Source: Gammaproteobacteria bacterium
GTDB taxonomy: Bacteria; Pseudomonadota; Gammaproteobacteria; JAJPIJ01
Direction of reading: 5' to 3'
Length of the DNA stretch: 64,000 bases
Assembly (NCBI GenBank): GCA_035501935.1
Contig: DATJVC010000025.1
Span: forward strand, 8,905-72,904
The number at the start of each line of letters is the position of its first letter. The stretch's first letter is position 1. This document shows, one piece after another, positions 974 through 51,585 of this stretch. The translations under genes were made by a program, and so were the position numbers. The notes under the pieces were generated by a model. The model worked only from the letters and a program-made list of their open reading frames with translations. It did no database searches and was not told the origin of the DNA.

Positions 974-2038
974 TCACCAGACAGCGCCGGTCTGAACGGC
1001 CTGATTTGATGACGGCGGTGTCTTCTGCACATCCGCCTTGAGTGAAGGATCGGGCTCGCTGGCAACCGACCTTCCAATCATCACGGGTACGCCATTCCTG
1101 GTATCAATGGCACTGCGGACCTGTATCCAATTGATCTCCACCCGACGTTTGCGCACTGTGGCGGTGAGGGTATCCACCGCCTGTTCATACTGATCGGCGC
1201 GGGCGGCCGGGTCTTCTTCCAGGCGCGGGTGGGCTTCCAGATAGAGACCACCCTCCAGCCACCCCACCTTGTAGGGTTGATTGACGATTCGCACCGGCGT
1301 GCCTTTATCGACCTGTGCAAACAGGGTGGCGATGTCCTTGGGGTATAGACGGATGCAACCGTGCGTCACCCGCATGCCTATACCCTCTTCCTTTTCCTCA
1401 TCGGTACCGTGAATGTAATAGCCGGGGATCCCCAGCTTTAGCGCGAATTGCCCCATGGGATTGTCGGGACCGGGCTTGACCACCGCCGGCAGCACCTCGT
1501 CGTACTCACGCAGATGCTCCTCACGTATGGATTTCGGCGGCACCCATGCCGGATCTTTAATCTTGGCGATGACCTTGGTTACCCCATATGGGGTGGTCCA
1601 GTTTTCACGGCCGATGCTGATGGGATGAGTAATGACCACCTGCGGTTCGTTTTTTTTGGGTTTGGGATAGTAGTACAGCCGCATCTCGGCGACATTGATG
1701 ACGATGCCTTCGTGTGGCGTGTCCGGCAATACGTACTGGCTCGGGATCAGGAGTTCCGTACCGTCCTTGATCATGGCGAACGGGTTGACCTTCGGATTGG
1801 CCATGCGCATCTCGTCGTAACCTTGATCGTAGAGCATGTACAGATCAATGACCGAATCATTGGCGGACAATGTGGTGAGGTTGGTGCTGCCCACCACGTT
1901 GTCGCCGTTGCGCGGCAACCGGAAAGTTTCGGCGTGCGCCGTCGTGGCCAGTGCCATACCCAACAGCATGGCAGCGACGTTTTCTCCAATATGCTCAGTT
2001 ACCGGCATGCGGGAGCCCCAGAACCTCGTCATTTCCAT
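974..2038 (-). CDS. L,D-transpeptidase (YkuD domain, YbiS/ErfK/LdtB-like)
   Basis: Aligns along its length to E. coli YbiS, including the catalytic HGT...GIGMRVTHGCIRL motif. Signal peptide ...MLLGMALATTAHA. ATG chosen at 2038; 2032 is also possible. Confidence 0.8.
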   Translation of the reverse strand: MEMTRFWGSRMPVTEHIGENVAAMLLGMALATTAHAETFRLPRNGDNVVGSTNLTTLSANDSVIDLYMLYDQGYDEMRMANPKVNPFAMIKDGTELLIPSQYVLPDTPHEGIVINVAEMRLYYYPKPKKNEPQVVITHPISIGRENWTTPYGVTKVIAKIKDPAWVPPKSIREEHLREYDEVLPAVVKPGPDNPMGQFALKLGIPGYYIHGTDEEKEEGIGMRVTHGCIRLYPKDIATLFAQVDKGTPVRIVNQPYKVGWLEGGLYLEAHPRLEEDPAARADQYEQAVDTLTATVRKRRVEINWIQVRSAIDTRNGVPVMIGRSVASEPDPSLKADVQKTPPSSNQAVQTGAVW

Positions 2039-2068
2039 TGGACTGTAAACTTCAGGAATGATTCTCAA

Positions 2069-2437
2069 CTATTCAGCGCGCCATGCGGCAATCATCAGGC
2101 ACAGCCAGCCTGCCATGTATGCCACCCCACCCAGCGGAATGATCGGACGCAAATTCACCGCCAGTAAGTATGAAACATACAGCCCGCCGCCGAAGAGCAG
2201 CATGCCCGTCCCCCAGCAACCGCACGCCGCGGTATACCATCGACCGTTCACCGCCCGCCTGGTCCCCACGGCAACGAGAGCCAGGGCATGCATAAACTGG
2301 TAATGCGCGGCCAACTCCAAGTGTGCCAGTATTTCCGCTGCCATGCGCTGTCGAAGAATATGTTCAGCGTAAGCGTCGAACAGGATCGCCGTCAGCGCCG
2401 CGGCGGCGCCCACGCCCAGCCAGACCCTGCCCGTCAC
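2069..2437 (-). CDS. DUF423 (YgdD-like) small inner-membrane protein
   Basis: C-terminal 120 aa align to E. coli YgdD (GMLLFGGGLYVSYLL...GGVAYMAGW). GTG start 1 nt after the upstream stop. The longer track ORF overlaps the neighbouring gene. Confidence 0.6.
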   Translation of the reverse strand: MTGRVWLGVGAAAALTAILFDAYAEHILRQRMAAEILAHLELAAHYQFMHALALVAVGTRRAVNGRWYTAACGCWGTGMLLFGGGLYVSYLLAVNLRPIIPLGGVAYMAGWLCLMIAAWRAE

Positions 2438-2438
2438 A

Positions 2439-2954
2439 TCAATAGGCCCGTCTCGGTGGCAACGGGGCGGCCGTGCCTTCCAGCGCGTGCAACTCGTCAA
2501 GCAGGGTATCGATACGACGCAACATTTCCACGGTGATTTGATCGCCGCGCAGGGCGGCCACGGAAGCTGCATCCTTGATATCGTCAAGCTCCCGGTGTAA
2601 TTCCTTGATGCGGTTTTGCCGGTCTACTTCAGCTTGCTGCGTCATCAGCCTGGCGCGGGCTTCCTCGGCCGCGGCTTCACGCGCCTCCTGTACCGACCGG
2701 GCGTGATCGGCGTCACGCCGCACCAGATCGTGACGGAGCTGGTTTTGATTCAGTGCGGCCACCTGTTCGGGGTCGGCCAGCGGCTGGGAAATGGAACTGC
2801 AATGCGGGGCTATGGTCTGACCGCGGAAGCATCGTGGCGGGACATTACTGATTTGCTTGACTCCATGCGCATCGCGCCAGACGTAGAATTCCGCCTGCGC
2901 ATTCACCGCGCCGAGCAGCATCGCGGCACCGAACACGTATAATGGGCTTCGCAT
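2439..2954 (-). CDS. DUF4124 domain secreted protein with C-terminal coiled coil
   Basis: Signal peptide, then the DUF4124 signature FYVWRDAHGVKQISNVPP. Confidence 0.55.
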   Translation of the reverse strand: MRSPLYVFGAAMLLGAVNAQAEFYVWRDAHGVKQISNVPPRCFRGQTIAPHCSSISQPLADPEQVAALNQNQLRHDLVRRDADHARSVQEAREAAAEEARARLMTQQAEVDRQNRIKELHRELDDIKDAASVAALRGDQITVEMLRRIDTLLDELHALEGTAAPLPPRRAY

Positions 2955-7537: not shown

Positions 7538-8897
7538 CGCGGTTTCGGCCTCCCGGGCACACGTCGTCATCGTCGGCGGTGGATTCGCCGGCTTGTCGGC
7601 GGCTAGGGCCATGGCCAGGGCGCCGGTGCGGATCACCCTGATCGAGCGCCACAATTATCACTTGTTTCAGCCGCTGCTCTATCAGGTAGCCACCTCTGCA
7701 TTGACGCCCGCAGAGATCGCCTCTCCGGTGCGAGGCATCCTGCGCGACCAGAAAAACGCGACGGTATACATGGATACCGTGGTGGACGTCGATAAAACAC
7801 AGCGACGCGTCCGTACGCAGAGTGGACGCGATTTCGCCTATGACTATTTGATTCTCGCCACGGGTGCGCGCCACAGCTATTTCGGCAACGATCAGTGGGC
7901 AGCTCATGCGCCGGGGCTCAAGACGCTGGATGACGCGATGGAGGTGCGGCAGCGTATTCTGATCGCCTTCGAGCGCGCCGAGATGGAGACCATCGACCGG
8001 GAGCGCAGGCGTGCACACCTTACCTTCGTAATCGTTGGTGCCGGCCCCACGGGAGTGGAGATGGCCGGTGCCATCGCCGAACTGGCTCACTCCATCGCCC
8101 ATGATTTCCGCAATGTCTCCACGCGTTGCGCCCACGTCATACTGGTGGAGGCCGGCGACCGCGTCCTGCCGCAATTCCCGCCGTCACTTTCACAACGCGC
8201 CCAACGGGATCTCAAACGCATGGATGTGGACGTGCGCGTCAAAACGCGAGTGGAACAGATCGAACCTGGTCACGTGGTGCTGAACGGGGCCCGACTGGCG
8301 GCCGAGACGGTGATCTGGGCCGCCGGCGTCCAGGCCTCACCGGCCAGCCAGTGGTTGAAGGTCACCGCCGACCGTTCCAGCCGCGTGATCGTCAACGCGG
8401 ATCTTTCCGTACCTGGTCATGAGGATATCTTCGTGATCGGTGACACCGCAGCCTGTACGCCAGCGGGCGCTGAAAGGCCGTTGCCGGGTCTTGCGCCTGT
8501 GGCCAAACAGGAGGGCGAATTCGTCGGGCGTCTGATCGCCTCGCGCGTGACCGGCAGAAAAGCGCCACGCCCTTTCCATTATCTTGATTTCGGCACCATG
8601 GCCACCATCGGCAGGAACAGCGGGATCGCCAGTTTGCGCAGCATGCGCTTCAGCGGGTTCATCGGCTGGCTGCTGTGGGGCGCGGTGCACATTTATTTCT
8701 TGATCGATTTCCGCAGCCGGGTCATGGTGGCCCTGAACTGGTTGTGGGCGTATCTCACCTATCAACGCGGCTCCCGGCTCATCACGGGCCTGAACCTGGA
8801 AACACAAGGAGAACAACATGGCAACGAATCCCAAAATGGTAAATCTGGCACTGCAGGGTGGAGGGGCGCACGGAGCCTTCGCCTGGGGAGTGCTTGA
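7527..8897 (+). CDS. ndh: Type II NADH dehydrogenase (NDH-2) / FAD-dependent pyridine nucleotide-disulfide oxidoreductase
   Basis: Two GxGxxG Rossmann motifs (VVIVGGGFAGL, FVIVGAGPTGVE) and a C-terminal amphipathic tail. GTG start overlaps the adc stop. The 3-prime end overlaps the patatin start by 80 nt. Confidence 0.75.
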   Translation: MRNNAVSASRAHVVIVGGGFAGLSAARAMARAPVRITLIERHNYHLFQPLLYQVATSALTPAEIASPVRGILRDQKNATVYMDTVVDVDKTQRRVRTQSGRDFAYDYLILATGARHSYFGNDQWAAHAPGLKTLDDAMEVRQRILIAFERAEMETIDRERRRAHLTFVIVGAGPTGVEMAGAIAELAHSIAHDFRNVSTRCAHVILVEAGDRVLPQFPPSLSQRAQRDLKRMDVDVRVKTRVEQIEPGHVVLNGARLAAETVIWAAGVQASPASQWLKVTADRSSRVIVNADLSVPGHEDIFVIGDTAACTPAGAERPLPGLAPVAKQEGEFVGRLIASRVTGRKAPRPFHYLDFGTMATIGRNSGIASLRSMRFSGFIGWLLWGAVHIYFLIDFRSRVMVALNWLWAYLTYQRGSRLITGLNLETQGEQHGNESQNGKSGTAGWRGARSLRLGSA

Positions 8898-34671: not shown

Positions 34672-34758
34672 TGGTGCCCAGGGCCGGACTCGAACCGGCA
34701 CGGGGTTTCCCCCAAGGGATTTTAAGTCCCTTGCGTCTACCTGTTCCGCCACCCGGGC
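34672..34758 (-). tRNA. tRNA-Leu (anticodon TAA)
   Basis: Cloverleaf with a long variable arm, 7-nt loop CUUAAAA, CCA end. Confidence 0.85.
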
Positions 34759-34801
34759 TGACACGTACTGGCAAATTATAGGTGATCGTTGATGCAGAAA
34801 G

Positions 34802-34875
34802 TGGAGGCTGGAGTCGGAATCGAACCGGCGTACACGGATTTGCAGTCCGCTGCATGACCACTCTGCCATCCAGCC
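34802..34875 (-). tRNA. tRNA-Cys (anticodon GCA)
   Basis: Cloverleaf, loop CUGCAAA, CCA end. Confidence 0.85.
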
Positions 34876-34931
34876 TTGATAAATGTCGGGTGCCCGCCAG
34901 GCGCACCCCCGAAGCACACCGATTAAAAAAG

Positions 34932-34953
34932 AAAACCCCGATGCCGGGGTTTT
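34932..34953. terminator. Palindromic hairpin aaaaccccgatgccggggtttt between tRNA-Gly and tRNA-Cys (bidirectional terminator-like)
   Basis: GC stem flanked by an A-run and a T-run. Confidence 0.4.
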
Positions 34954-34965
34954 CTTGGGTCAATC

Positions 34966-35041
<76 letters not shown>

Positions 35042-38134: not shown

Positions 38135-38224
38135 TGGCGGAGAGGGTGGGATTCGAACCCACGGCGGGCTTGCGCCCGCGCCGGTTTTCAAGACCGGTGC
38201 ATTCAACCGCTCTGCCACCTCTCC
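38135..38224 (-). tRNA. tRNA-Ser (anticodon TGA)
   Basis: Cloverleaf with a long variable arm, loop CUUGAAA, CCA end. Confidence 0.85.
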
Positions 38225-44906: not shown

Positions 44907-46187
44907 TTATGACTGTCGTGTAATCAACGAAACACCGCCCATGTAAGGCCGCAACACTTCCGGGACGCGGATGCTGCCATCCGCGCTCTGATAATTTTCC
45001 ATCACGGCGATCAACGCCCGGCCCGCGGCCACGCCGGAACCGTTGAGGGTGTGCAGTAGTTCCGTTTTGCCCGTTTCGGGGCTGCGAAAGCGCGCCATCA
45101 TACGCCGGCTTTGAAAATTTTCGAAGTTGCTGCAGGAGGAAATCTCGCGATAGGCGTTCTGGCCCGGCAGCCAGACTTCCAAATCGTAGGTCTTGGCGGC
45201 GGCGAAACCCATGTCGCCGGCGCACAGAGCCACCACGCGGTAAGGCAGCGCCAGCCGTTTCAACACCTCTTCGGCGTGTCCGGTCAACGCCTCCAGCGCA
45301 TCGTAGGATTTTGTAGGCTCAACGAGCTGCACCAGTTCGACTTTTTCGAATTGGTGCTGTCGAATCATGCCACGGGTGTCCTTGCCATAGGAACCCGCCT
45401 CGCTGCGAAAACAAGGGCTGTGGCAGGCGTATTTGCGCGGCAGGGTTTTTACGTCCAGTATGGCATCGCGCGCAATGTTGGTGACCGGCACTTCGGCCGT
45501 CGGAATCAAATAAAAATCCTGTTGCGGCACATGGAATAGATCGGTCTTGAACTTCGGCAACTGACCGGTACCGCGCATGGAATCCGCGTTGACGAGAAAC
45601 GGCACATACACTTCGGTGTAGCCGTGCTCGCGGATGTGCAGGTCCAGCATGAACTGGATGAGTGCCCGCTGCATGCGCGCCAGCGGTCCGGAAAGTACGA
45701 CGAAGCGGCTGCTCGCGATTTTGGCGGCAACGTCGAAATCCATGCCTTCGAGCGCCGCGCCCAGTTCGACATGATCCTTGGGGGCAAAATCGAACTTGGG
45801 CGGCGCGCCCCAGCGCCGCTGTTCCACATTGTCCTCCGGACCCTTGCCATCTGGCACGCCGGCATGCGGCATGTTGGGCAGATGCAGCGCAAATTCATGA
45901 ATGCGTGCCTGCACGTCGGCCAGTTTGTTCTCGGAGGCCGCCAATTGTTCGCCCAGACCAGTGACCTCGGCCATCATCGCCGCCGTGTCCTCGCCCCGCT
46001 TCCTGGCTGCGCCGATGGCCTTGGACTTGCTGTTGCGCGCCGCCTGCAGCTCCTGGGTGCGGACTTGCAGGTCTTTGCGCTCGTCTTCAAGCGCTTTGAT
46101 GGAGACAACGTCGAGGATGAGCCCGCGACGCGCCAGCGCCACGCGGACATCTTCAATATGGCTGCGTAACAGTTGTGGATCCAGCAT
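44907..46187 (-). CDS. serS: Seryl-tRNA synthetase
   Basis: N-terminal coiled-coil arm plus class II core motifs. Confidence 0.9.
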
Positions 46188-46376
46188 GTTTTTCGACGCC
46201 GTCCACCGGACAGGAGAACAGCCCGGCTTGACGAATGGCCATCAATAAATTTTTGCTAGTGTAACGCGGCTTCCAATCAAACGCGATCGCGAACGGCCAA
46301 ATTCGTTGCGGAACTTCCAATTCGTGACCATCTGAGAATCTTGCGCCTGCGGGCCAATTCCATTATTCTTTGAGTC

Positions 46377-46432
46377 ACGGGAGATGGCATTCCTCCCGAT
46401 AACAACCGCCACACGGCTGATGATGCCTGCTT
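46377..46432 (+). ncRNA. Fluoride riboswitch (crcB motif) aptamer, with a candidate terminator hairpin at ~46425-46460
   Basis: GGGAG-AUGGCAUUC-CUCCC (P1) ...AACCGCC... GGCUGAUGAUGCC. The P1 loop GGCAU is complementary to the 3-prime AUGCC (pseudoknot covariation). The downstream hairpin GCCTGCTT...AAGCAGGC shares its left arm with the pseudoknot strand. Confidence 0.7.
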
Positions 46433-46660
46433 GAGTACCCACTGAGGTGCAAAGCAGGCGGCATTATTGTCTCCTTTGTGTCTCGCTTTAAGCAGGAAAA
46501 ACTGCGTGACAGGCACAAAGATTTTCGCAAACACCACGTCTTTGACCGCGGAAGCCATCGCGGCACGCTCCGGAAACAGCCGCGGATTCACTGCCGCGGC
46601 CATAGATTCTTTTGCCCGGGAAAACTACGGACAGTACCCGATATTACCGGAGCGCGATGC

Positions 46661-47062
46661 ATGAGCATGGTTAGCATCATCGCCGTCGGCGCCGGGGCAA
46701 TGCTCGGCGCGTGGTTGCGCTGGTGGCTGGGAATGCTGCTGAATCCCGTTTTTCCGACATTACCGTTGGGAACTCTCGCCTCCAATCTGATCGGAGGATA
46801 CATCATCGGACTTGCCGTCGGCGCCGTGAGCCTTGAACTCGGCCTGCCGCCACAAGCCAGACTGTTCTTGATGACCGGTTTCTGCGGCGGGCTGACGACA
46901 TTCTCCACGTTTTCCGCGGAAACTTTCACTTTGTTCTCGGAAGGACAGATCGCATGGGGAATTGGTGAAGTCCTCATACATGTCAGCGGTTCCCTGCTGG
47001 CAACGACAATGGGGTTTTTCAGCGTGAAAATCCTGCATCATCTGATGGAGGGCCTGCCATGA
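46661..47062 (+). CDS. crcB: Fluoride channel CrcB/Fluc (paralog 1)
   Basis: Four-TM CrcB fold, with GFCGGLTTFSTFS matching the conserved GxxGxxTTFSTF motif. Confidence 0.8.
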   Translation: MSMVSIIAVGAGAMLGAWLRWWLGMLLNPVFPTLPLGTLASNLIGGYIIGLAVGAVSLELGLPPQARLFLMTGFCGGLTTFSTFSAETFTLFSEGQIAWGIGEVLIHVSGSLLATTMGFFSVKILHHLMEGLP

Positions 47063-47463
47063 ATCAACAGCGGCGCGATTGGAGAGTACACGGTCTGGAA
47101 GGTGTGTTTCTGCGGTTCGTCCTGCACGAAAACCGCAAATACAAAGGACAACTGATCTACGACTGGCTCTTGATAAAAGCTAGAAACCTCGGCATTCACG
47201 GTGGATCGGCGTTTCATGGAATCGCCGGTTTCGGCCGCCACGGCGTGTTGCATGAACAGCATTTCTGGGAGTTGTCCGGCGACCTGCCGGTCGAAGTGCG
47301 CTTCATATGCAGCGAAAACGAGGCGGGTAAGCTGCTCGATGCGGTCGAGGAGGCCGGGCTCTCCCTGTTTTACGTGATTTCGCCGGTCAGGTACGGGGTG
47401 ACCGGTGTCCAGAAGACCGAGTTGGTCAAGGCAATGCCTCCGCTAAAGGGGGAAACACAATGA
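47059..47463 (+). CDS. DUF190 (PII-like) protein, a crcB-associated family
   Basis: GIAGFGRHG and a PII-like fold pattern. ATGA overlap with the crcB stop. Confidence 0.7.
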   Translation: MNQQRRDWRVHGLEGVFLRFVLHENRKYKGQLIYDWLLIKARNLGIHGGSAFHGIAGFGRHGVLHEQHFWELSGDLPVEVRFICSENEAGKLLDAVEEAGLSLFYVISPVRYGVTGVQKTELVKAMPPLKGETQ

Positions 47464-48692
47464 CGGAAATCTGGGCGCTGTCGGCGTTGTGGATAGGTTT
47501 GGCGTTGCTCGCCACATTGTTGTCGATCTGGTTCCGGGTCGCCACGGCGCTGTCTGAAATCGTTGTGGGAACCGTGGCACAACTGCTGATCGGCGCATTC
47601 ATCGGGACCGCATTGCTCGCCACTGATTCCATATGGGTCAAATATCTCTCGGGGACAGGTGCAATCGTACTCACGTTCCTCGCCGGCGCCGAACTCGACC
47701 CCGAGGTATTCCGGCGCAAATGGAAGGAGGCGACGGTGGTCGGGCTGATCGGCTTTTTCGCACCGTTCTTCGGATGTGCTGCCGGCGCCTACTGGCTGCT
47801 GGGATGGGGGCACGAACCCAGTCTGCTTGCCGGGATTGCGATGTCCACGACTTCCGTCGCCGTGGTTTATGCAGTGATGCTCGAATTCGGTCTGAACAAG
47901 ACTGAATATGGCAAGACGGTGCTCGCGTCGTGCTTCATCAACGATCTCGGCACGGTGATTGGACTCGGCCTGATCTTTGCGCCCTTCACGTTCAAAACTC
48001 TCGTGTTCGTCGCCGGTATGGCCATGGCGGCGCTGGTACTGCCCTGGTTGACTCCGCGCTTCTTCAGGCGCTACGGCGGGAGGCCATCGGAAATGGAGGC
48101 CAAGTACCTTCTATTGTGTCTCTTCGGCCTCGGGGCGCTGGCCGGCTGGGCTGACAGCGAAGCAGTGCTCCCGGCCTACTTGATAGGAATGGTGCTTGCC
48201 GGCACGGTCGGCAAGGATCACGCTCTGATACGCCGGCTGCGCACGCTCACCTTCGGCCTGCTGACCCCCTTCTATTTCATCCGCGCCGGCTCGTTCGTTT
48301 CGATGCCGGCGCTGATCGCGGCACCGGCGGCCTTTATTGCGATGTTCCTGATAAAAATGGTGACCAAGTTCGCCGGCATCTACCCGGTCACCAAGGCTTT
48401 TCGCTCGCCGCAGAAAGAGAGTCTCTATACGACATTGCTGATGTCAACGGGCCTGACCTTCGGTACGATCTCCTCACTTTTCGGGCTGTCGCATGGGATA
48501 ATCAACCAGGCGCAGTATTCAGCACTGGTCGCGGCGGTGGTCGCCAGCGCGGTGATCCCCACCCTCATCGCGAATGCCTGGTTCCTGCCGCACCATTTGC
48601 TGCCCAAGCCGGGGAATGCGGTCGAAGAAAAAACAGGACACGGCATGTCGCCACTGCCGGCGGGAAAACCAGCACGGGCCAATACGGGATAA
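47460..48692 (+). CDS. Cation:proton antiporter (CPA/Na+-H+ exchanger membrane domain)
   Basis: 12 or more TM helices, with motifs LATDSIWV...GAELD typical of NhaP/KefB-type exchangers. Confidence 0.75.
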   Translation: MTEIWALSALWIGLALLATLLSIWFRVATALSEIVVGTVAQLLIGAFIGTALLATDSIWVKYLSGTGAIVLTFLAGAELDPEVFRRKWKEATVVGLIGFFAPFFGCAAGAYWLLGWGHEPSLLAGIAMSTTSVAVVYAVMLEFGLNKTEYGKTVLASCFINDLGTVIGLGLIFAPFTFKTLVFVAGMAMAALVLPWLTPRFFRRYGGRPSEMEAKYLLLCLFGLGALAGWADSEAVLPAYLIGMVLAGTVGKDHALIRRLRTLTFGLLTPFYFIRAGSFVSMPALIAAPAAFIAMFLIKMVTKFAGIYPVTKAFRSPQKESLYTTLLMSTGLTFGTISSLFGLSHGIINQAQYSALVAAVVASAVIPTLIANAWFLPHHLLPKPGNAVEEKTGHGMSPLPAGKPARANTG

Positions 48693-48695
48693 CCC

Positions 48696-49112
48696 ATGTA
48701 CCGGAAAATTTTGATCGCCTACGATGGCTCCGAACCCGGCAGAAAGGCGTTCAACATGGCACTTGACCTCGCCGTCAGAGACAAGGCCGATTTGTACGTG
48801 CTGTCCGTGGTGAGGACGCTCGATGTCGCGGACGACGTTGAGACTGAAGCAGTGATCGAAAACTCGCGCGCGTACCACACCGAACAATTTGCGCTGCTCA
48901 AACATCTCATTTCGGAAAAAGGCATCAAGGGGCATTTCGAGGTTACCGTGGGCCATCCGGCAGAACAAATCATCTACAGCGCCGACCGGCATGATGTGGA
49001 CCTGATAGTCATTGGCCATCGGGGACGATCGAAGTTCGCGCGGCTTCTGCTGGGGTCCGTGTCAAAAAATGTGGTGCAGTATGCCGACCGGCCGGTTATG
49101 GTGGTCCGGTGA
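48696..49112 (+). CDS. uspA: Universal stress protein (UspA family)
   Basis: ATP-binding type Usp motifs (ILIAYDGS..., VIGHRGRS.....LGSVS). Confidence 0.75.
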   Translation: MYRKILIAYDGSEPGRKAFNMALDLAVRDKADLYVLSVVRTLDVADDVETEAVIENSRAYHTEQFALLKHLISEKGIKGHFEVTVGHPAEQIIYSADRHDVDLIVIGHRGRSKFARLLLGSVSKNVVQYADRPVMVVR

Positions 49113-49135
49113 CGCACTCGCCTTGAGAGCAAACC

Positions 49136-49510
49136 GTGAAGGACGTGATCTGGATTGCACTCGGCGCGGTCGTCGGAGCGAACCTGCGCTATGCGATCAA
49201 CCGTCTGGCGCTGAAACACCTTTCCGCGTCGGTCCCTTATGGGACCCTGATAGTCAACGTCACGGGCAGTTTTATTCTCGGCTTCTTTCTCGCCTGGACC
49301 GCAGAACGCGTGCTGGCGGATCCACGCTGGCGCGCGCTGGTCGCGGTGGGTTTCTGCGGCGCCTACACGACCTATTCCAGCTACAGCTACGAGACGGTCG
49401 CGTTGCTGGAGCAGGGGCATTATGGCCTTGCGACAATGAATTTTTTCGCCAATAATCTCCTGTCACTTCTCGGAGTAGTCGCCGGCATGGTTCTGGCGCG
49501 GACCATCTGA
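49136..49510 (+). CDS. crcB: Fluoride channel CrcB/Fluc (paralog 2)
   Basis: CrcB fold with GFCGAYTTYSSYS. Sequence is divergent from paralog 1. Confidence 0.8.
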   Translation: MKDVIWIALGAVVGANLRYAINRLALKHLSASVPYGTLIVNVTGSFILGFFLAWTAERVLADPRWRALVAVGFCGAYTTYSSYSYETVALLEQGHYGLATMNFFANNLLSLLGVVAGMVLARTI

Positions 49511-49511
49511 C

Positions 49512-49841
49512 ATGAGCCGCGAATTCGTCCGCGTATCGGTGTATATCAATGAAGCCGATGAATGGCATCACCGGCCGCTCCATCTTGAAGTGTTGCGCAT
49601 GCTGCACGACCGCGGCGTGGCGGGCGGCACAGTGTTGCGCGCCGTCGCCGGCTTCACCGGGAAAGGCGGCGTGGAGACCACTTCGCTCGTCGATGCCGGC
49701 GGCAAACTGCCGCTGGTGATCGAGTTTATCGATGCAATGGAAAAAATCGGACGTGTGATGCCAGAACTGAAAAAAATGGTCGGCCATCGACTCATTGTGC
49801 ATGAACAGGTCGAAGTCGATGACACTGAAAGGCCGGGTTGA
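49512..49841 (+). CDS. DUF190 (PII-like) protein, second copy
   Basis: VAGFTGKGG motif, paralogous to the 47059-47463 product. Confidence 0.7.
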   Translation: MSREFVRVSVYINEADEWHHRPLHLEVLRMLHDRGVAGGTVLRAVAGFTGKGGVETTSLVDAGGKLPLVIEFIDAMEKIGRVMPELKKMVGHRLIVHEQVEVDDTERPG

Positions 49842-49989
49842 CCAGGCGCATCAAGTCAGCATTTCTGTCATTTAAACTTTGTGAGCAATGCCCCCAGTCA
49901 TGCCCCACCACGAATTGGGATCTTCCTTTATTTCAACCGTGGCGGCATTCCGTACCGTCGATACTGGAAGCGCCCAGTGCTTTCGCCCG

Positions 49990-50256
49990 TCACGCCTTGC
50001 CGCGACCATTGTTGATTACGGTGCAGGGGATCCCTGTCTGCCTGAGCGCCCGGCTTGCGGTGCCAAAAGTATCAGCCGTCAGTACTTCGATCGCCAAAAT
50101 CCTCCGCAGTCGTCTTAATCTGCCCGTCACGCCACGCATCAGACGGCCGTCACGGGCCAATGTGCCATTGAAATCGAGCACGAGATGGCGTAAAAACAAT
50201 TTGCCACGTCCCGGAATATCTATTTTCAGCCCCGCCGGTTCATTCATGCCCGTCAA
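49990..50256 (-). CDS. Small HAD-like fragment (degenerate DxDGT motif LVLDFNGTL). Possible gene remnant.
   Basis: 88-aa ORF. Motif I has Asn in place of the second Asp. Arg-rich. No SD identified. Confidence 0.3.
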   Translation of the reverse strand: MTGMNEPAGLKIDIPGRGKLFLRHLVLDFNGTLARDGRLMRGVTGRLRRLRRILAIEVLTADTFGTASRALRQTGIPCTVINNGRGKA

Positions 50257-50274
50257 CTTTCACGCGGATAATTG

Positions 50275-51585
50275 TCAACGCTTATTCTTGTTTCGCGCTG
50301 TTTCATCCAGCGCCCGCAACTGCCGCAACTTCTCGGCGATTTTGGCTTCCAGGCCGCGGTCAGTGGGTTCGTAATAGCGGCGATTGTGCAGTTTTTCAGG
50401 CAGATAATTCTCACCGGCCGCGTAGGCGTCAGGTTCGTCGTGGGCGTAGCGGTAATCCTTGCCGTAATCAAGATGCTTCATGAGTTTGGTCGGCGCATTG
50501 CGCAGATACAGCGGCACCTCCAGCGAACCCTGCTCCTGCGCATCGCGCATCGCGCTGTTAAACGCAGTGTAAACCGCGTTGCTCTTGGCGCAACAGGCGA
50601 GGTACACCACTGCTTGCGCGATGGACAGTTCGCCCTCCGGGCTGCCGAGTCGTTCCTGCGTTTCCCAGGCATCGAGCGCCAGGCGCAACGCGCGCGGATC
50701 GGCATTGCCGATGTCCTCCGAGGCCATGCGCACCACGCGCCGGGCGACGTACAGCGGATCACAGCCACCATCAATCATGCGCGCCAACCAGTACAGGGCC
50801 CCGTCGGGGTTCGAACCGCGCACCGATTTATGCAGAGCGGAGATCTGGTCATAGAATGCCTCGCCGCCCTTATCGAAGCGCCGCAGGCTGCCGCCAGTGA
50901 TCACCTCATCCAGCAACGCCTCGTTAATATCCCTTCCTTCCGTCAATGACATGGCGATTTCGAGATAAATGAGTGCACGGCGCGCATCGCCATCGGCGGC
51001 CTGCGCGAGCTTGTCCCGCACTCCAGGGGCCATGCCTGCACCGGTCGCCGCCAGAGCGGAATCGATGAGAGTGCGCAACTGCGATGCCCCAAGGCTCTTC
51101 AAGACATAGACCCGCACCCTCGACAACAGCGCATTATTCAGTTCAAAGGAGGGATTTTCCGTCGTTGCCCCGATAAAAATGATCGTGCCGTCCTCAATAT
51201 GTGGCAGAAAGGAATCCTGTTGGGACTTGTTGAAGCGATGCACCTCGTCAATGAACAAAATTGTTCGCCTGCCCTCCCCTTCCCTTGCCTTCCTGGCCTG
51301 ATCGATGGCGGCGCGGATTTCCTTGACGCCTGAAAGCACCGCCGACAACTGCAGAAATTCCGCGTTGCTTTGAGTCGCGATCAGTCGGGCCAGCGTGGTC
51401 TTGCCGGAGCCGGGCGGCCCCCAGAAGATCATGGAGTGCACCTGGCCGGTTTCGATGGCCCGTCGCAACGGTTTGCCCGGCGCCAGCAGATGTTCCTGGC
51501 CGACCACATCCTCAATACGTTGAGGACGCAGTCGATCCGCCAGGGGGCGGAAATCGGAAACAGTAGGGCTATCCGGTCTGTTCAA
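50275..51585 (-). CDS. rarA: Replication-associated recombination protein A (MgsA/RarA AAA+ ATPase)
   Basis: [11 protein letters not shown] Walker A, sensor motifs, C-terminal MgsA domain. Confidence 0.9.

Follow-up and report, generated by a model that had tools for sequence, protein, structure and literature searches.

A fluoride-riboswitch operon with two divergent CrcB-DUF190 modules between serS and rarA of a gammaproteobacterium

In a 64,000-nucleotide stretch of gammaproteobacterial DNA (contig DATJVC010000025.1; this whole stretch is called the window below), a fluoride riboswitch is followed by six plus-strand genes: crcB1, encoding a subunit of a Fluc fluoride channel; DUF190a; a cation:proton antiporter (CPA) gene; a universal stress protein (Usp) gene; crcB2, encoding a second and variant Fluc subunit; and DUF190b. 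The presence of the described fluoride-riboswitch arrangement is far beyond chance. Comparing the locus with related loci and with published work on Fluc channels, we consider it reasonably probable that it forms one fluoride-inducible unit, in which two independent Fluc-DUF190 modules are placed around a CPA-Usp core, and that it has been vertically inherited at a crcB site.

Layout and control of the operon

Each of the six genes is backed by a Pfam match (cutoffs 32.9 bits for CRCB, PF02537, 23.4 bits for DUF190 and 26.2 bits for Na_H_Exchanger) and the riboswitch is backed by Rfam (Table 1), in agreement with the gene order and families of an original prediction made from the letters of the stretch. 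That prediction counted seven genes, and the correct count is six genes and one RNA. The genes are tightly packed, with a 4-nt ATGA overlap at both the crcB1/DUF190a and the DUF190a/CPA junctions and with gaps of 3 nt between CPA and Usp, 23 nt between Usp and crcB2, and 1 nt between crcB2 and DUF190b; the ATGA overlaps are as predicted, while the predicted spacing of 2-20 nt holds approximately. The paralogs are divergent rather than recent duplicates, as had been proposed: CrcB1 and CrcB2 are 34% identical, and DUF190a and DUF190b are 25% identical where they align over 51 aa. The families are likewise those known to accompany fluoride riboswitches, the antiporter and HAD classes being among the most frequent ones according to PMC11139923 and a Usp example being given in PMC5533749. 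The outer neighbours are lolA past rarA and pntAB past serS.

Table 1. Features of the operon and its immediate flanks, in window coordinates
Feature	Position	Strand	Evidence
serS, flank on one side of operon	44907-46187	-	Pfam
Candidate sigma-70 promoter, TTGCGC-17 nt-TATTCT, directly 5' of aptamer	46343-46371	+	Sequence reading
Fluoride riboswitch aptamer (crcB motif, RF01734)	46371-46436	+	Rfam, 51.1 bits vs gathering score 34, E=3e-11
Putative expression platform: long hairpin (46418-46466) and U-rich tail	46418-46489	+	Minimum free energy fold
Rest of long leader	46490-46660	+	Read from sequence, L083 alignment
crcB1, canonical Fluc fluoride channel subunit, 133 aa	46661-47062	+	Pfam CRCB, E=3.8e-28, 98 bits
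DUF190a, PII-like, type a, 134 aa	47059-47463	+	Pfam DUF190, E=9e-19, 68 bits
CPA-superfamily cation:proton antiporter, 410 aa	47460-48692	+	Pfam Na_H_Exchanger, E=6e-36, 124.5 bits
Universal stress protein, ATP-binding class, 138 aa	48696-49112	+	Pfam Usp, E=5e-35, 121.5 bits
crcB2, variant Fluc subunit, 124 aa	49136-49510	+	Pfam CRCB, E=3.6e-29, 101 bits
DUF190b, PII-like, type b, 109 aa	49512-49841	+	Pfam DUF190, E=1.4e-28, 99 bits
Decayed HAD-IC-like gene (small soluble P-type-ATPase-like phosphatase)	49960-50256	-	77% identity over 96 aa to L083 copy
rarA, flank on other side of operon	50275-51585	-	Pfam

Across the 64 kb window, Rfam detects a single fluoride riboswitch. The match spans the full model (positions 1-64 of 64), and the element scores 86 bits under a custom model made from 7 cassette riboswitches. 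The candidate promoter was missed by a strict consensus scan; its TTGCGC-17-TATTCT block is kept in the corresponding locus of a sister species (L083; surveyed loci carry L numbers). Folding of 46371-46495 to minimum free energy gave an interrupted hairpin of 19 bp (z = -3.2 vs shuffles) whose 5' arm is formed by the aptamer's 3' end. The stem of this hairpin is conserved in L083, and the aptamer and hairpin are among the best-conserved blocks of the L083 alignment. A simple terminator scan did not call the hairpin, the loop being too long for the scan's rule. This layout implies the usual transcriptional ON fluoride riboswitch, which would work by antitermination. Within the operon, terminator-like sites are no commoner than in shuffled sequence, and a single transcript is therefore a reasonable inference.

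The leader from the aptamer end to the crcB1 ATG (46437-46660) measures 224 nt, compared with shorter leaders of 40-128 nt in related cassettes, and no recognisable element was seen in it. In its distal part (46490-46660), the first ~120 nt are partly conserved in L083 and the last ~50 nt are not, and the substitutions show no 3-nt periodicity (20/19/14). We treated the leader as non-coding: a minus-strand open reading frame (ORF) is open in both species, but the substitutions are not 3-periodic and the ORF matches nothing. When translations of the leader and of the minus strand upstream of serS were read, with no formal search, there was no resemblance to an old co-directional crcB or DUF190 remnant.

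The core of the operon consists of the antiporter and the Usp. The antiporter aligns with KefC and NapA over 340 residues (KefC E=3e-9, range ~1e-9 to 1e-7), and its membrane domain is Kef/NapA-like; the protein ends at 410 aa without a KTN/RCK domain. Where KefC has Q155-D156 it has N-D ('FIND' vs 'FQD' in the alignment), and it reaches 106 bits against the CPA2 model NCBIfam TIGR00932, below the cutoff of 238.3. On these comparisons, the most fitting description is that of a divergent CPA-superfamily protein. The Usp translation contains the nucleotide-binding motif G-2x-G-9x-G-S (GHRGRSKFARLLLGS) of the MJ0577-like class, and its PDB matches are the ATP-binding Usps 1WJG and 1MJH.

Two Fluc types, each with its own DUF190

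Parts of the six-gene set recur elsewhere in two forms, which we collected from the genomic contexts of CPA homologs. Such homologs number in the thousands, the best 120 being 75-100% identical, and across all cassette variants the antiporter is 73-88% identical. In one form (A; L084/85 and L086/87), the order is riboswitch-crcB(type 1)-DUF190(type a)-CPA-Usp, to which a 156-aa HAD gene may be added; in the other (B; L089 and L095/96), it is riboswitch-CPA-Usp-crcB(type 2)-DUF190(type b), again with an optional 156-aa HAD gene. The genome GCA_035499735.1 is an example with form A only, and GCA_964638135.1 one with form B only. The type-2 pair also occurs alone, in L088, L090 and L091; in L090 and L091 it has no riboswitch, and in L088 none precedes the pair, although two lie elsewhere in the locus. 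The window and its sister species thus carry forms A and B fused around one CPA-Usp core. Form A (L084 9077-12104) and form B (L095 6798-9356) both lie just downstream of moaE, behind mobB-moeA-thiS-moaE, on different contigs. Because the two occupy the same site, the modules substitute for one another and either can serve the cassette alone; such a pattern points to a double form that lost different modules, or to swapping of the modules. The modular cassette is widespread in environmental Proteobacteria.

The HAD gene of these cassettes also has a counterpart here, overlooked by the original prediction: the decayed minus-strand gene next to rarA is, by homology, a seventh cassette member. 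Codon 86 of the window copy is an in-frame TGA, and the homology of this copy ends at ~aa 96, so that the 3' half including the GNGRND motif is lost. The L083 copy is intact (158 aa, 7607-8083, minus strand). In the sister species the gene overlaps the rarA stop and lies on the rarA strand, opposite to the other cassette genes. In L084 (11634-12104, plus strand) and L089 (6713-7183, plus strand), the cassette closes with an intact copy of 156 aa. Matches of this gene to NCBIfam HAD-IC and P-type ATPase models are weak.

Fluc channels are proteins of about 120-130 aa with four transmembrane helices. Both CrcB proteins conform to this and align end to end with Fluc-Ec2 among PDB sequences, and they differ at the pore. 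CrcB1 (E~1e-27 to Fluc-Ec2) retains R19, N41, F80, F83, S84, E86, H106, S110 and T114 in Ec2 numbering, and is by sequence a near-textbook Fluc. The best PDB match of CrcB2 is 6B24, the Ec2 F80Y mutant. Its Phe box reads TTYSSYSYE vs STFSTFSVE in Ec2, with Tyr at both Phe positions; it has Asn at Ec2-H106 and Val at Ec2-T114, and it keeps R19, N41, S84, E86 and S110. In Fluc-Ec2, F80Y, F83Y and H106N each cut flux more than 10^4-fold, and T114V is fully active (PMC5636608).

The original prediction suggested that CrcB1 and CrcB2 form a heterodimeric Fluc. In such a channel they would be the two fixed-orientation subunits, as in Lactobacillus La1/La2. Consistent with this, divergent paralogs that share one operon would be expressed together, the twin Flucs described so far have ~25% identity (PMC3755343), and subunits of heterodimers typically show non-canonical residues in the pore (PMC5636608). 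Gene placement, however, does not fit: the crcB1 stop (47062) and the crcB2 start (49136) are 2.07 kb apart with DUF190a, CPA and Usp between them, whereas genes of heterodimeric Flucs are typically adjacent in tandem (PMC11139923). Loop charge does not fit either. Twin Flucs have abundantly charged loops of opposite Lys+Arg bias, and neither subunit is active alone (PMC3755343). By the criterion of that study (Stockbridge 2013), in which Lys+Arg of loops 1 and 3 are subtracted from those of the termini plus loop 2, the bias was +1 for CrcB1 and +2 for CrcB2, of the same sign, and +2 for homodimeric Ec2, the sole control of the comparison; values in the CrcB2 clade ran from 0 to +3, and the CrcB1 loops have only 1-2 charges. 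Moreover, each type is the sole crcB in the flanks of riboswitch cassettes of other genomes. Within the 6-10 kb flanks covered, only type 1 was found in L084-L087 and only type 2 in L088-L091 and L095/96. Finally, since each Fluc pore draws its F80 and its F83 from different subunits (PMC5636608), a CrcB1/CrcB2 dimer would put Tyr in both pores, unlike the La and Sa pairs with their one canonical pore. We regard a heterodimer as unlikely. Two homodimers are the most likely arrangement, well ahead of the heterodimer though not proven.

If CrcB2 forms a homodimer, it must contend with a pore that, in Ec2, would be inactive three times over. The relatives of CrcB2 bear on this point. Among its 120 closest homologs (71-99% identity), Tyr is present at the second Phe position in 118 and at the first in about half. 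Among the nearest 50%-identity CrcB representatives, Tyr occupies the Ec2-F83 position in ~35 of 116 (about 30%), and His106 is rare. The Tyr box thus reads as a clade trait rather than a lesion, and the view of CrcB2 as a dead or highly unusual channel loses weight, the second-position Tyr being common among representatives. The pore rules published for Ec2 look homolog-specific and may not define the whole Fluc family. The published Fluc-Bpe structure reportedly also has a substitution at the H106 position, namely Ser. Because the Tyr is a clade trait and the CrcB2 type is the sole Fluc in riboswitch cassettes, the most likely view is that CrcB2 works as a homodimeric channel whose pore entrance has a different chemistry.

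A converse possibility is that CrcB2 and its clade are not fluoride channels at all but non-conducting or re-purposed Fluc paralogs, which might handle another small anion or, as a variant of the same idea, play a regulatory or scaffolding role together with DUF190b. The three Ec2-inactivating equivalents and the riboswitch-free type-2 pairs of L090 and L091 would fit such a role; yet the clade is strongly conserved over 120 clusters, the residues R19, N41, S84, E86 and S110 are kept, the clade supplies the only Fluc of the riboswitch-controlled cassettes L089 and L095, and the residue frequencies given above indicate that the Ec2 rules do not generalise. Taken together, its two variants are very unlikely.

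The DUF190 proteins follow the channel types closely. DUF190a matches solved PII-fold proteins (PDB 1O51, TM0021, E=5e-10; 1O51/2DCL, E~1e-9), and DUF190b matches PDB 2DCL (PH1503) with E=4.5e-14 and, weakly, the true PII protein 7O4X (E=0.003). DUF190a is 50-85% identical to the DUF190 behind type-1 CrcB in L083, L084 and L086 and 18-26% identical to type b; DUF190b is 59-87% identical to the DUF190 behind type-2 CrcB in L083 and L088-L091. In all loci compared, the DUF190 behind a type-1 CrcB is of type a and the one behind a type-2 CrcB is of type b, without exception, with DUF190 identities of 50-87% within a type and 18-33% between types. The CrcB/DUF190 gene boundaries overlap or nearly touch across loci. 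The observation in the original prediction that each CrcB is followed by its own DUF190 copy therefore extends to a strict co-segregation of types. In the literature on DUF190 function (including COG1993/UPF0166/PF02641 and TM0021/PH1503), we found only the annotation of flJ in fluorinase clusters. Because the pairing is tight and type-specific, the gene context suggests that DUF190 is a direct channel partner, in analogy to GlnK-AmtB.

A broader proposal joins these two lines: DUF190 proteins would be PII-like gates, chaperones or sensors of Fluc with co-evolved specificity, and the CrcB2 clade would conduct fluoride through a remodelled site (Tyr for Phe83, Asn for His106) of a kind that the mutagenesis of Ec2 would have ruled out. 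We advance it tentatively, as a serious but doubtful possibility. If it were true, the operon would hold two orthogonal channel-partner pairs, DUF190 would gain a function, and the 'strict Phe box' rule of Fluc permeation would be reopened.

A separate observation concerns the type-2 pair in L091. Next to it and divergently oriented, at 2225-2992 on the minus strand, lie two further ORFs: one encodes a third DUF190, itself divergent in sequence (29-43% identity to either type), and the other, of 140 aa, is unannotated.

The rarA-serS site

The operon lies between rarA and serS on the strand opposite to both, as predicted, with six genes on the plus strand and the two neighbours on the minus strand. 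To place this junction in context, we surveyed 80 gammaproteobacterial rarA loci, 54 of which hold both rarA and serS. The best RarA identity among the 80 was 71%, and hence there is no close relative among the species representatives. In ~40 of the 54 loci, crcB lies between rarA and serS, with DUF190 right behind it in 6-7 of those; rarA and serS are directly adjacent, as in E. coli, in the other 14. The junction is therefore the usual gammaproteobacterial crcB site rather than a naive one. The resident crcB shares the strand of rarA and serS in all cases, and apart from one YxxF case its box is the canonical FxxF. Its identity to the window CrcBs is no more than 30-45%. No riboswitch was found before this gene (custom covariance model over 1.59 Mb; Rfam on a subset), in agreement with the lack of a fluoride riboswitch in P. 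putida (PMC11777429).

The full content of the operon is shared at this site by a sister species, represented in at least three independent data sets (L083/L093, L092 and L094; GCA_021324815.1, GCA_037025365.1 and SRR24677603). The layout at the same position is identical, with riboswitch, six genes and the minus-strand HAD-like gene. Proteins of the island are 78-88% identical between the two species and those of the flanks 84-91%, so that the divergence of the island is comparable to that of serS, rarA and pntA. As an aside, pntA appears in L083 as two ORFs (231 and 291 aa; 1093-2660, minus strand), whereas the window and L092 each have one undivided gene of 522 aa; the split is probably a frameshift or an assembly error in that metagenome-assembled genome (MAG).

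The original prediction regarded the locus as an accessory insertion, and proposed that synteny at rarA-serS be compared. The comparison does not support this: by that prediction's own account, the same genes at this position as core genome in relatives would count against it, and the sister species has them there, at shallow depth. On the one hand, the island might be a recently acquired mobile element inserted into an originally adjacent rarA-serS junction. Its orientation opposite to both neighbours, the directly adjacent genes in 14 of 54 loci and the unrelated contexts of the cassette in other lineages would agree with this, and neither CPA nor Usp is present at the rarA site in any of the 80 more distant loci; the content of the island is lineage-specific with respect to more distant Gammaproteobacteria. 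The antiporter adds to this side. It is 88% identical in all three pairs among the window (47460-48692), L083 (5220-6446) and L084 (10001-11197), and L084 is a Burkholderiales-labelled MAG whose CrcB, DUF190 and Usp are only 51-64% identical to those of the window. Such identity across lineages would reflect either lateral exchange of one gene or unusually strong constraint, and it suggests some lateral exchange in the deeper past.

On the other hand, no traces of a recent insertion were detected. The window ORFs include no integrase or transposase, Rfam placed the nearest tRNA more than 8 kb from the island, and direct or inverted flanking repeats were absent at 45900-50500, where there were only short repeats at chance level. 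The GC content of 0.54-0.61 is the same as in the flanks, with no compositional step. The sister species has the same genes in the same place at the same divergence as serS, rarA and pntA, albeit at shallow depth, and the site is a common crcB site. A recent mobile origin is therefore highly improbable. Judged by these comparisons, the island is vertically inherited within its lineage, a stable chromosomal feature rather than a recent insertion.

A 31-nt repeat match that was considered as an island boundary corresponds to the conserved motif of crcB transmembrane helix 3 and was rejected. The tRNA genes found by Rfam number four (34675-35041 and 38138-38224, minus strand), a cluster of three and one with a long arm; they are unrelated to the operon.

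Proposed operation and relation to known systems

The operon can be placed in a simple scheme of fluoride defence. At low fluoride, the terminator-like hairpin that shares the aptamer 3' end would stop transcription; binding of fluoride to the aptamer, as a Mg-F complex, would block the hairpin and let transcription continue through the six genes. We infer this switch step from the fold and from what is known of the riboswitch family. The products would comprise module 1, canonical CrcB1 with DUF190a; module 2, Tyr-box CrcB2 with DUF190b; and the core of antiporter and ATP-binding Usp. Entry of HF acidifies the cytoplasm, and Fluc releases F- passively (PMC11139923). Most likely the two CrcBs assemble separately, each into a dual-topology homodimer through which F- would leave down the membrane potential, and the antiporter most likely copes with the load of protons and cations that follows the entry of HF. 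Cation/proton antiporters are the second commonest riboswitch-linked class and restore pH and ion balance; other riboswitch-associated classes, beside Na+/H+ antiporters, are HAD-type genes, enolase and formate hydrogen lyase (PMC11139923). For the Usp and the DUF190 proteins, an accessory or regulatory role that involves nucleotide binding is probable. As to origin, the cassette would have taken a chromosomal site at which many Gammaproteobacteria keep a riboswitch-less crcB, and would have been vertically inherited since.

Several points weigh against this scheme of one inducible unit with two independent modules. CrcB2 carries the F80Y, F83Y and H106N equivalents, each of which abolishes conduction in Ec2 (PMC5636608), and activity of its homodimer is not assured. 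That CrcB and DUF190 types always go together could be a matter of linkage and need not indicate an interaction. The U-tract behind the terminator-like hairpin is imperfect, the 224-nt leader is unusually long, and the single transcript is deduced from gene spacing only. In addition, the 'sole crcB' status of each type holds only for flanks of 6-10 kb.

Fluoride-riboswitch-controlled resistance operons are said to form the class of Baker et al. 2012, and the operon shares features with several described systems. The riboswitch operon of Enterobacter cloacae FRM (ppaC-uspA-eno-gpmA-crcB-orf5249; PMC5533749) likewise has one crcB-motif riboswitch and a multigene unit with a Fluc and a Usp. Unlike that operon, ours contains no enolase or pyrophosphatase (fluoride-inhibited enzymes), has two Fluc genes of different subfamilies with a DUF190 each, and occupies the chromosomal rarA-serS site rather than a strain-specific island. 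As in Lactobacillus acidophilus La1/La2 (PMC3755343), a pair of divergent crcB paralogs shares a transcription unit, and one member of the pair departs from the canonical pore residues. In contrast to La1/La2, the two genes are separated, their loop charge biases share the same sign, either type can be found elsewhere without the other, and both pores would be affected by the substitutions. In common with homodimeric Fluc-Ec2 and Fluc-Bpe (PDB 5A43 and 5A40), all tested pore residues are kept in CrcB1 and the loop charges of both CrcBs are balanced and singleton-like, whereas CrcB2 differs from Fluc-Ec2 in its Tyr/Tyr for the Phe box and Asn for His106.

The resident rarA-crcB(-DUF190)-serS arrangement of Pseudomonas and of Thiohalobacter (L011) is at the same site and, in 6-7 loci, also has a DUF190 behind crcB; its crcB differs in being single, co-directional with rarA and serS, riboswitch-free and canonical (FxxF). 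The parallel with GlnK-AmtB, in which the PII protein plugs the channel beside which it is encoded, is a functional analogy only: in both cases a small PII-fold protein is encoded directly behind a channel gene, with translational coupling and type-specific pairing. In contrast to GlnK-AmtB, Fluc is a dimer and PII-like proteins are trimers (2DCL has three chains). The Streptomyces cattleya fluorometabolite cluster (flJ = DUF190; PMC9173684) similarly ties DUF190, sometimes duplicated, to fluorine biology, but that cluster is biosynthetic, with a fluorinase, while the operon here serves export and stress.

As a fluoride-defence operon, the locus adds little, since every gene class in it has already been linked to fluoride riboswitches. 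Its value lies elsewhere. Two Fluc subfamilies side by side, each with its own DUF190 type, make a convenient system for the question of whether DUF190, a widespread PII-like family, works with the channel. The CrcB2 clade, with Tyr where Fluc-Ec2 tolerates only Phe, bears on the generality of permeation rules. Further work would be well spent on the pairing of each Fluc with its cognate DUF190 and on the naturally occurring Tyr-box clade. The constant CPA-Usp core with alternative Fluc modules, for its part, shows how fluoride regulons are assembled and trimmed.

Two of the surveyed loci, L095/L096 (6798-15200) and L088, are dense fluoride regulons. In L095, three fluoride riboswitches lie within 7 kb and precede, respectively, CPA-Usp-crcB-DUF190, an enolase fragment with two MutS_V genes, and an operon resembling NADH dehydrogenase or hydrogenase. 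In L088 (1-12381), two divergent riboswitches precede two MutS_V genes and HIT/MFS genes, and the crcB-DUF190 pair is located behind hydrogenase-like genes and ahead of a dynamin-like GTPase.

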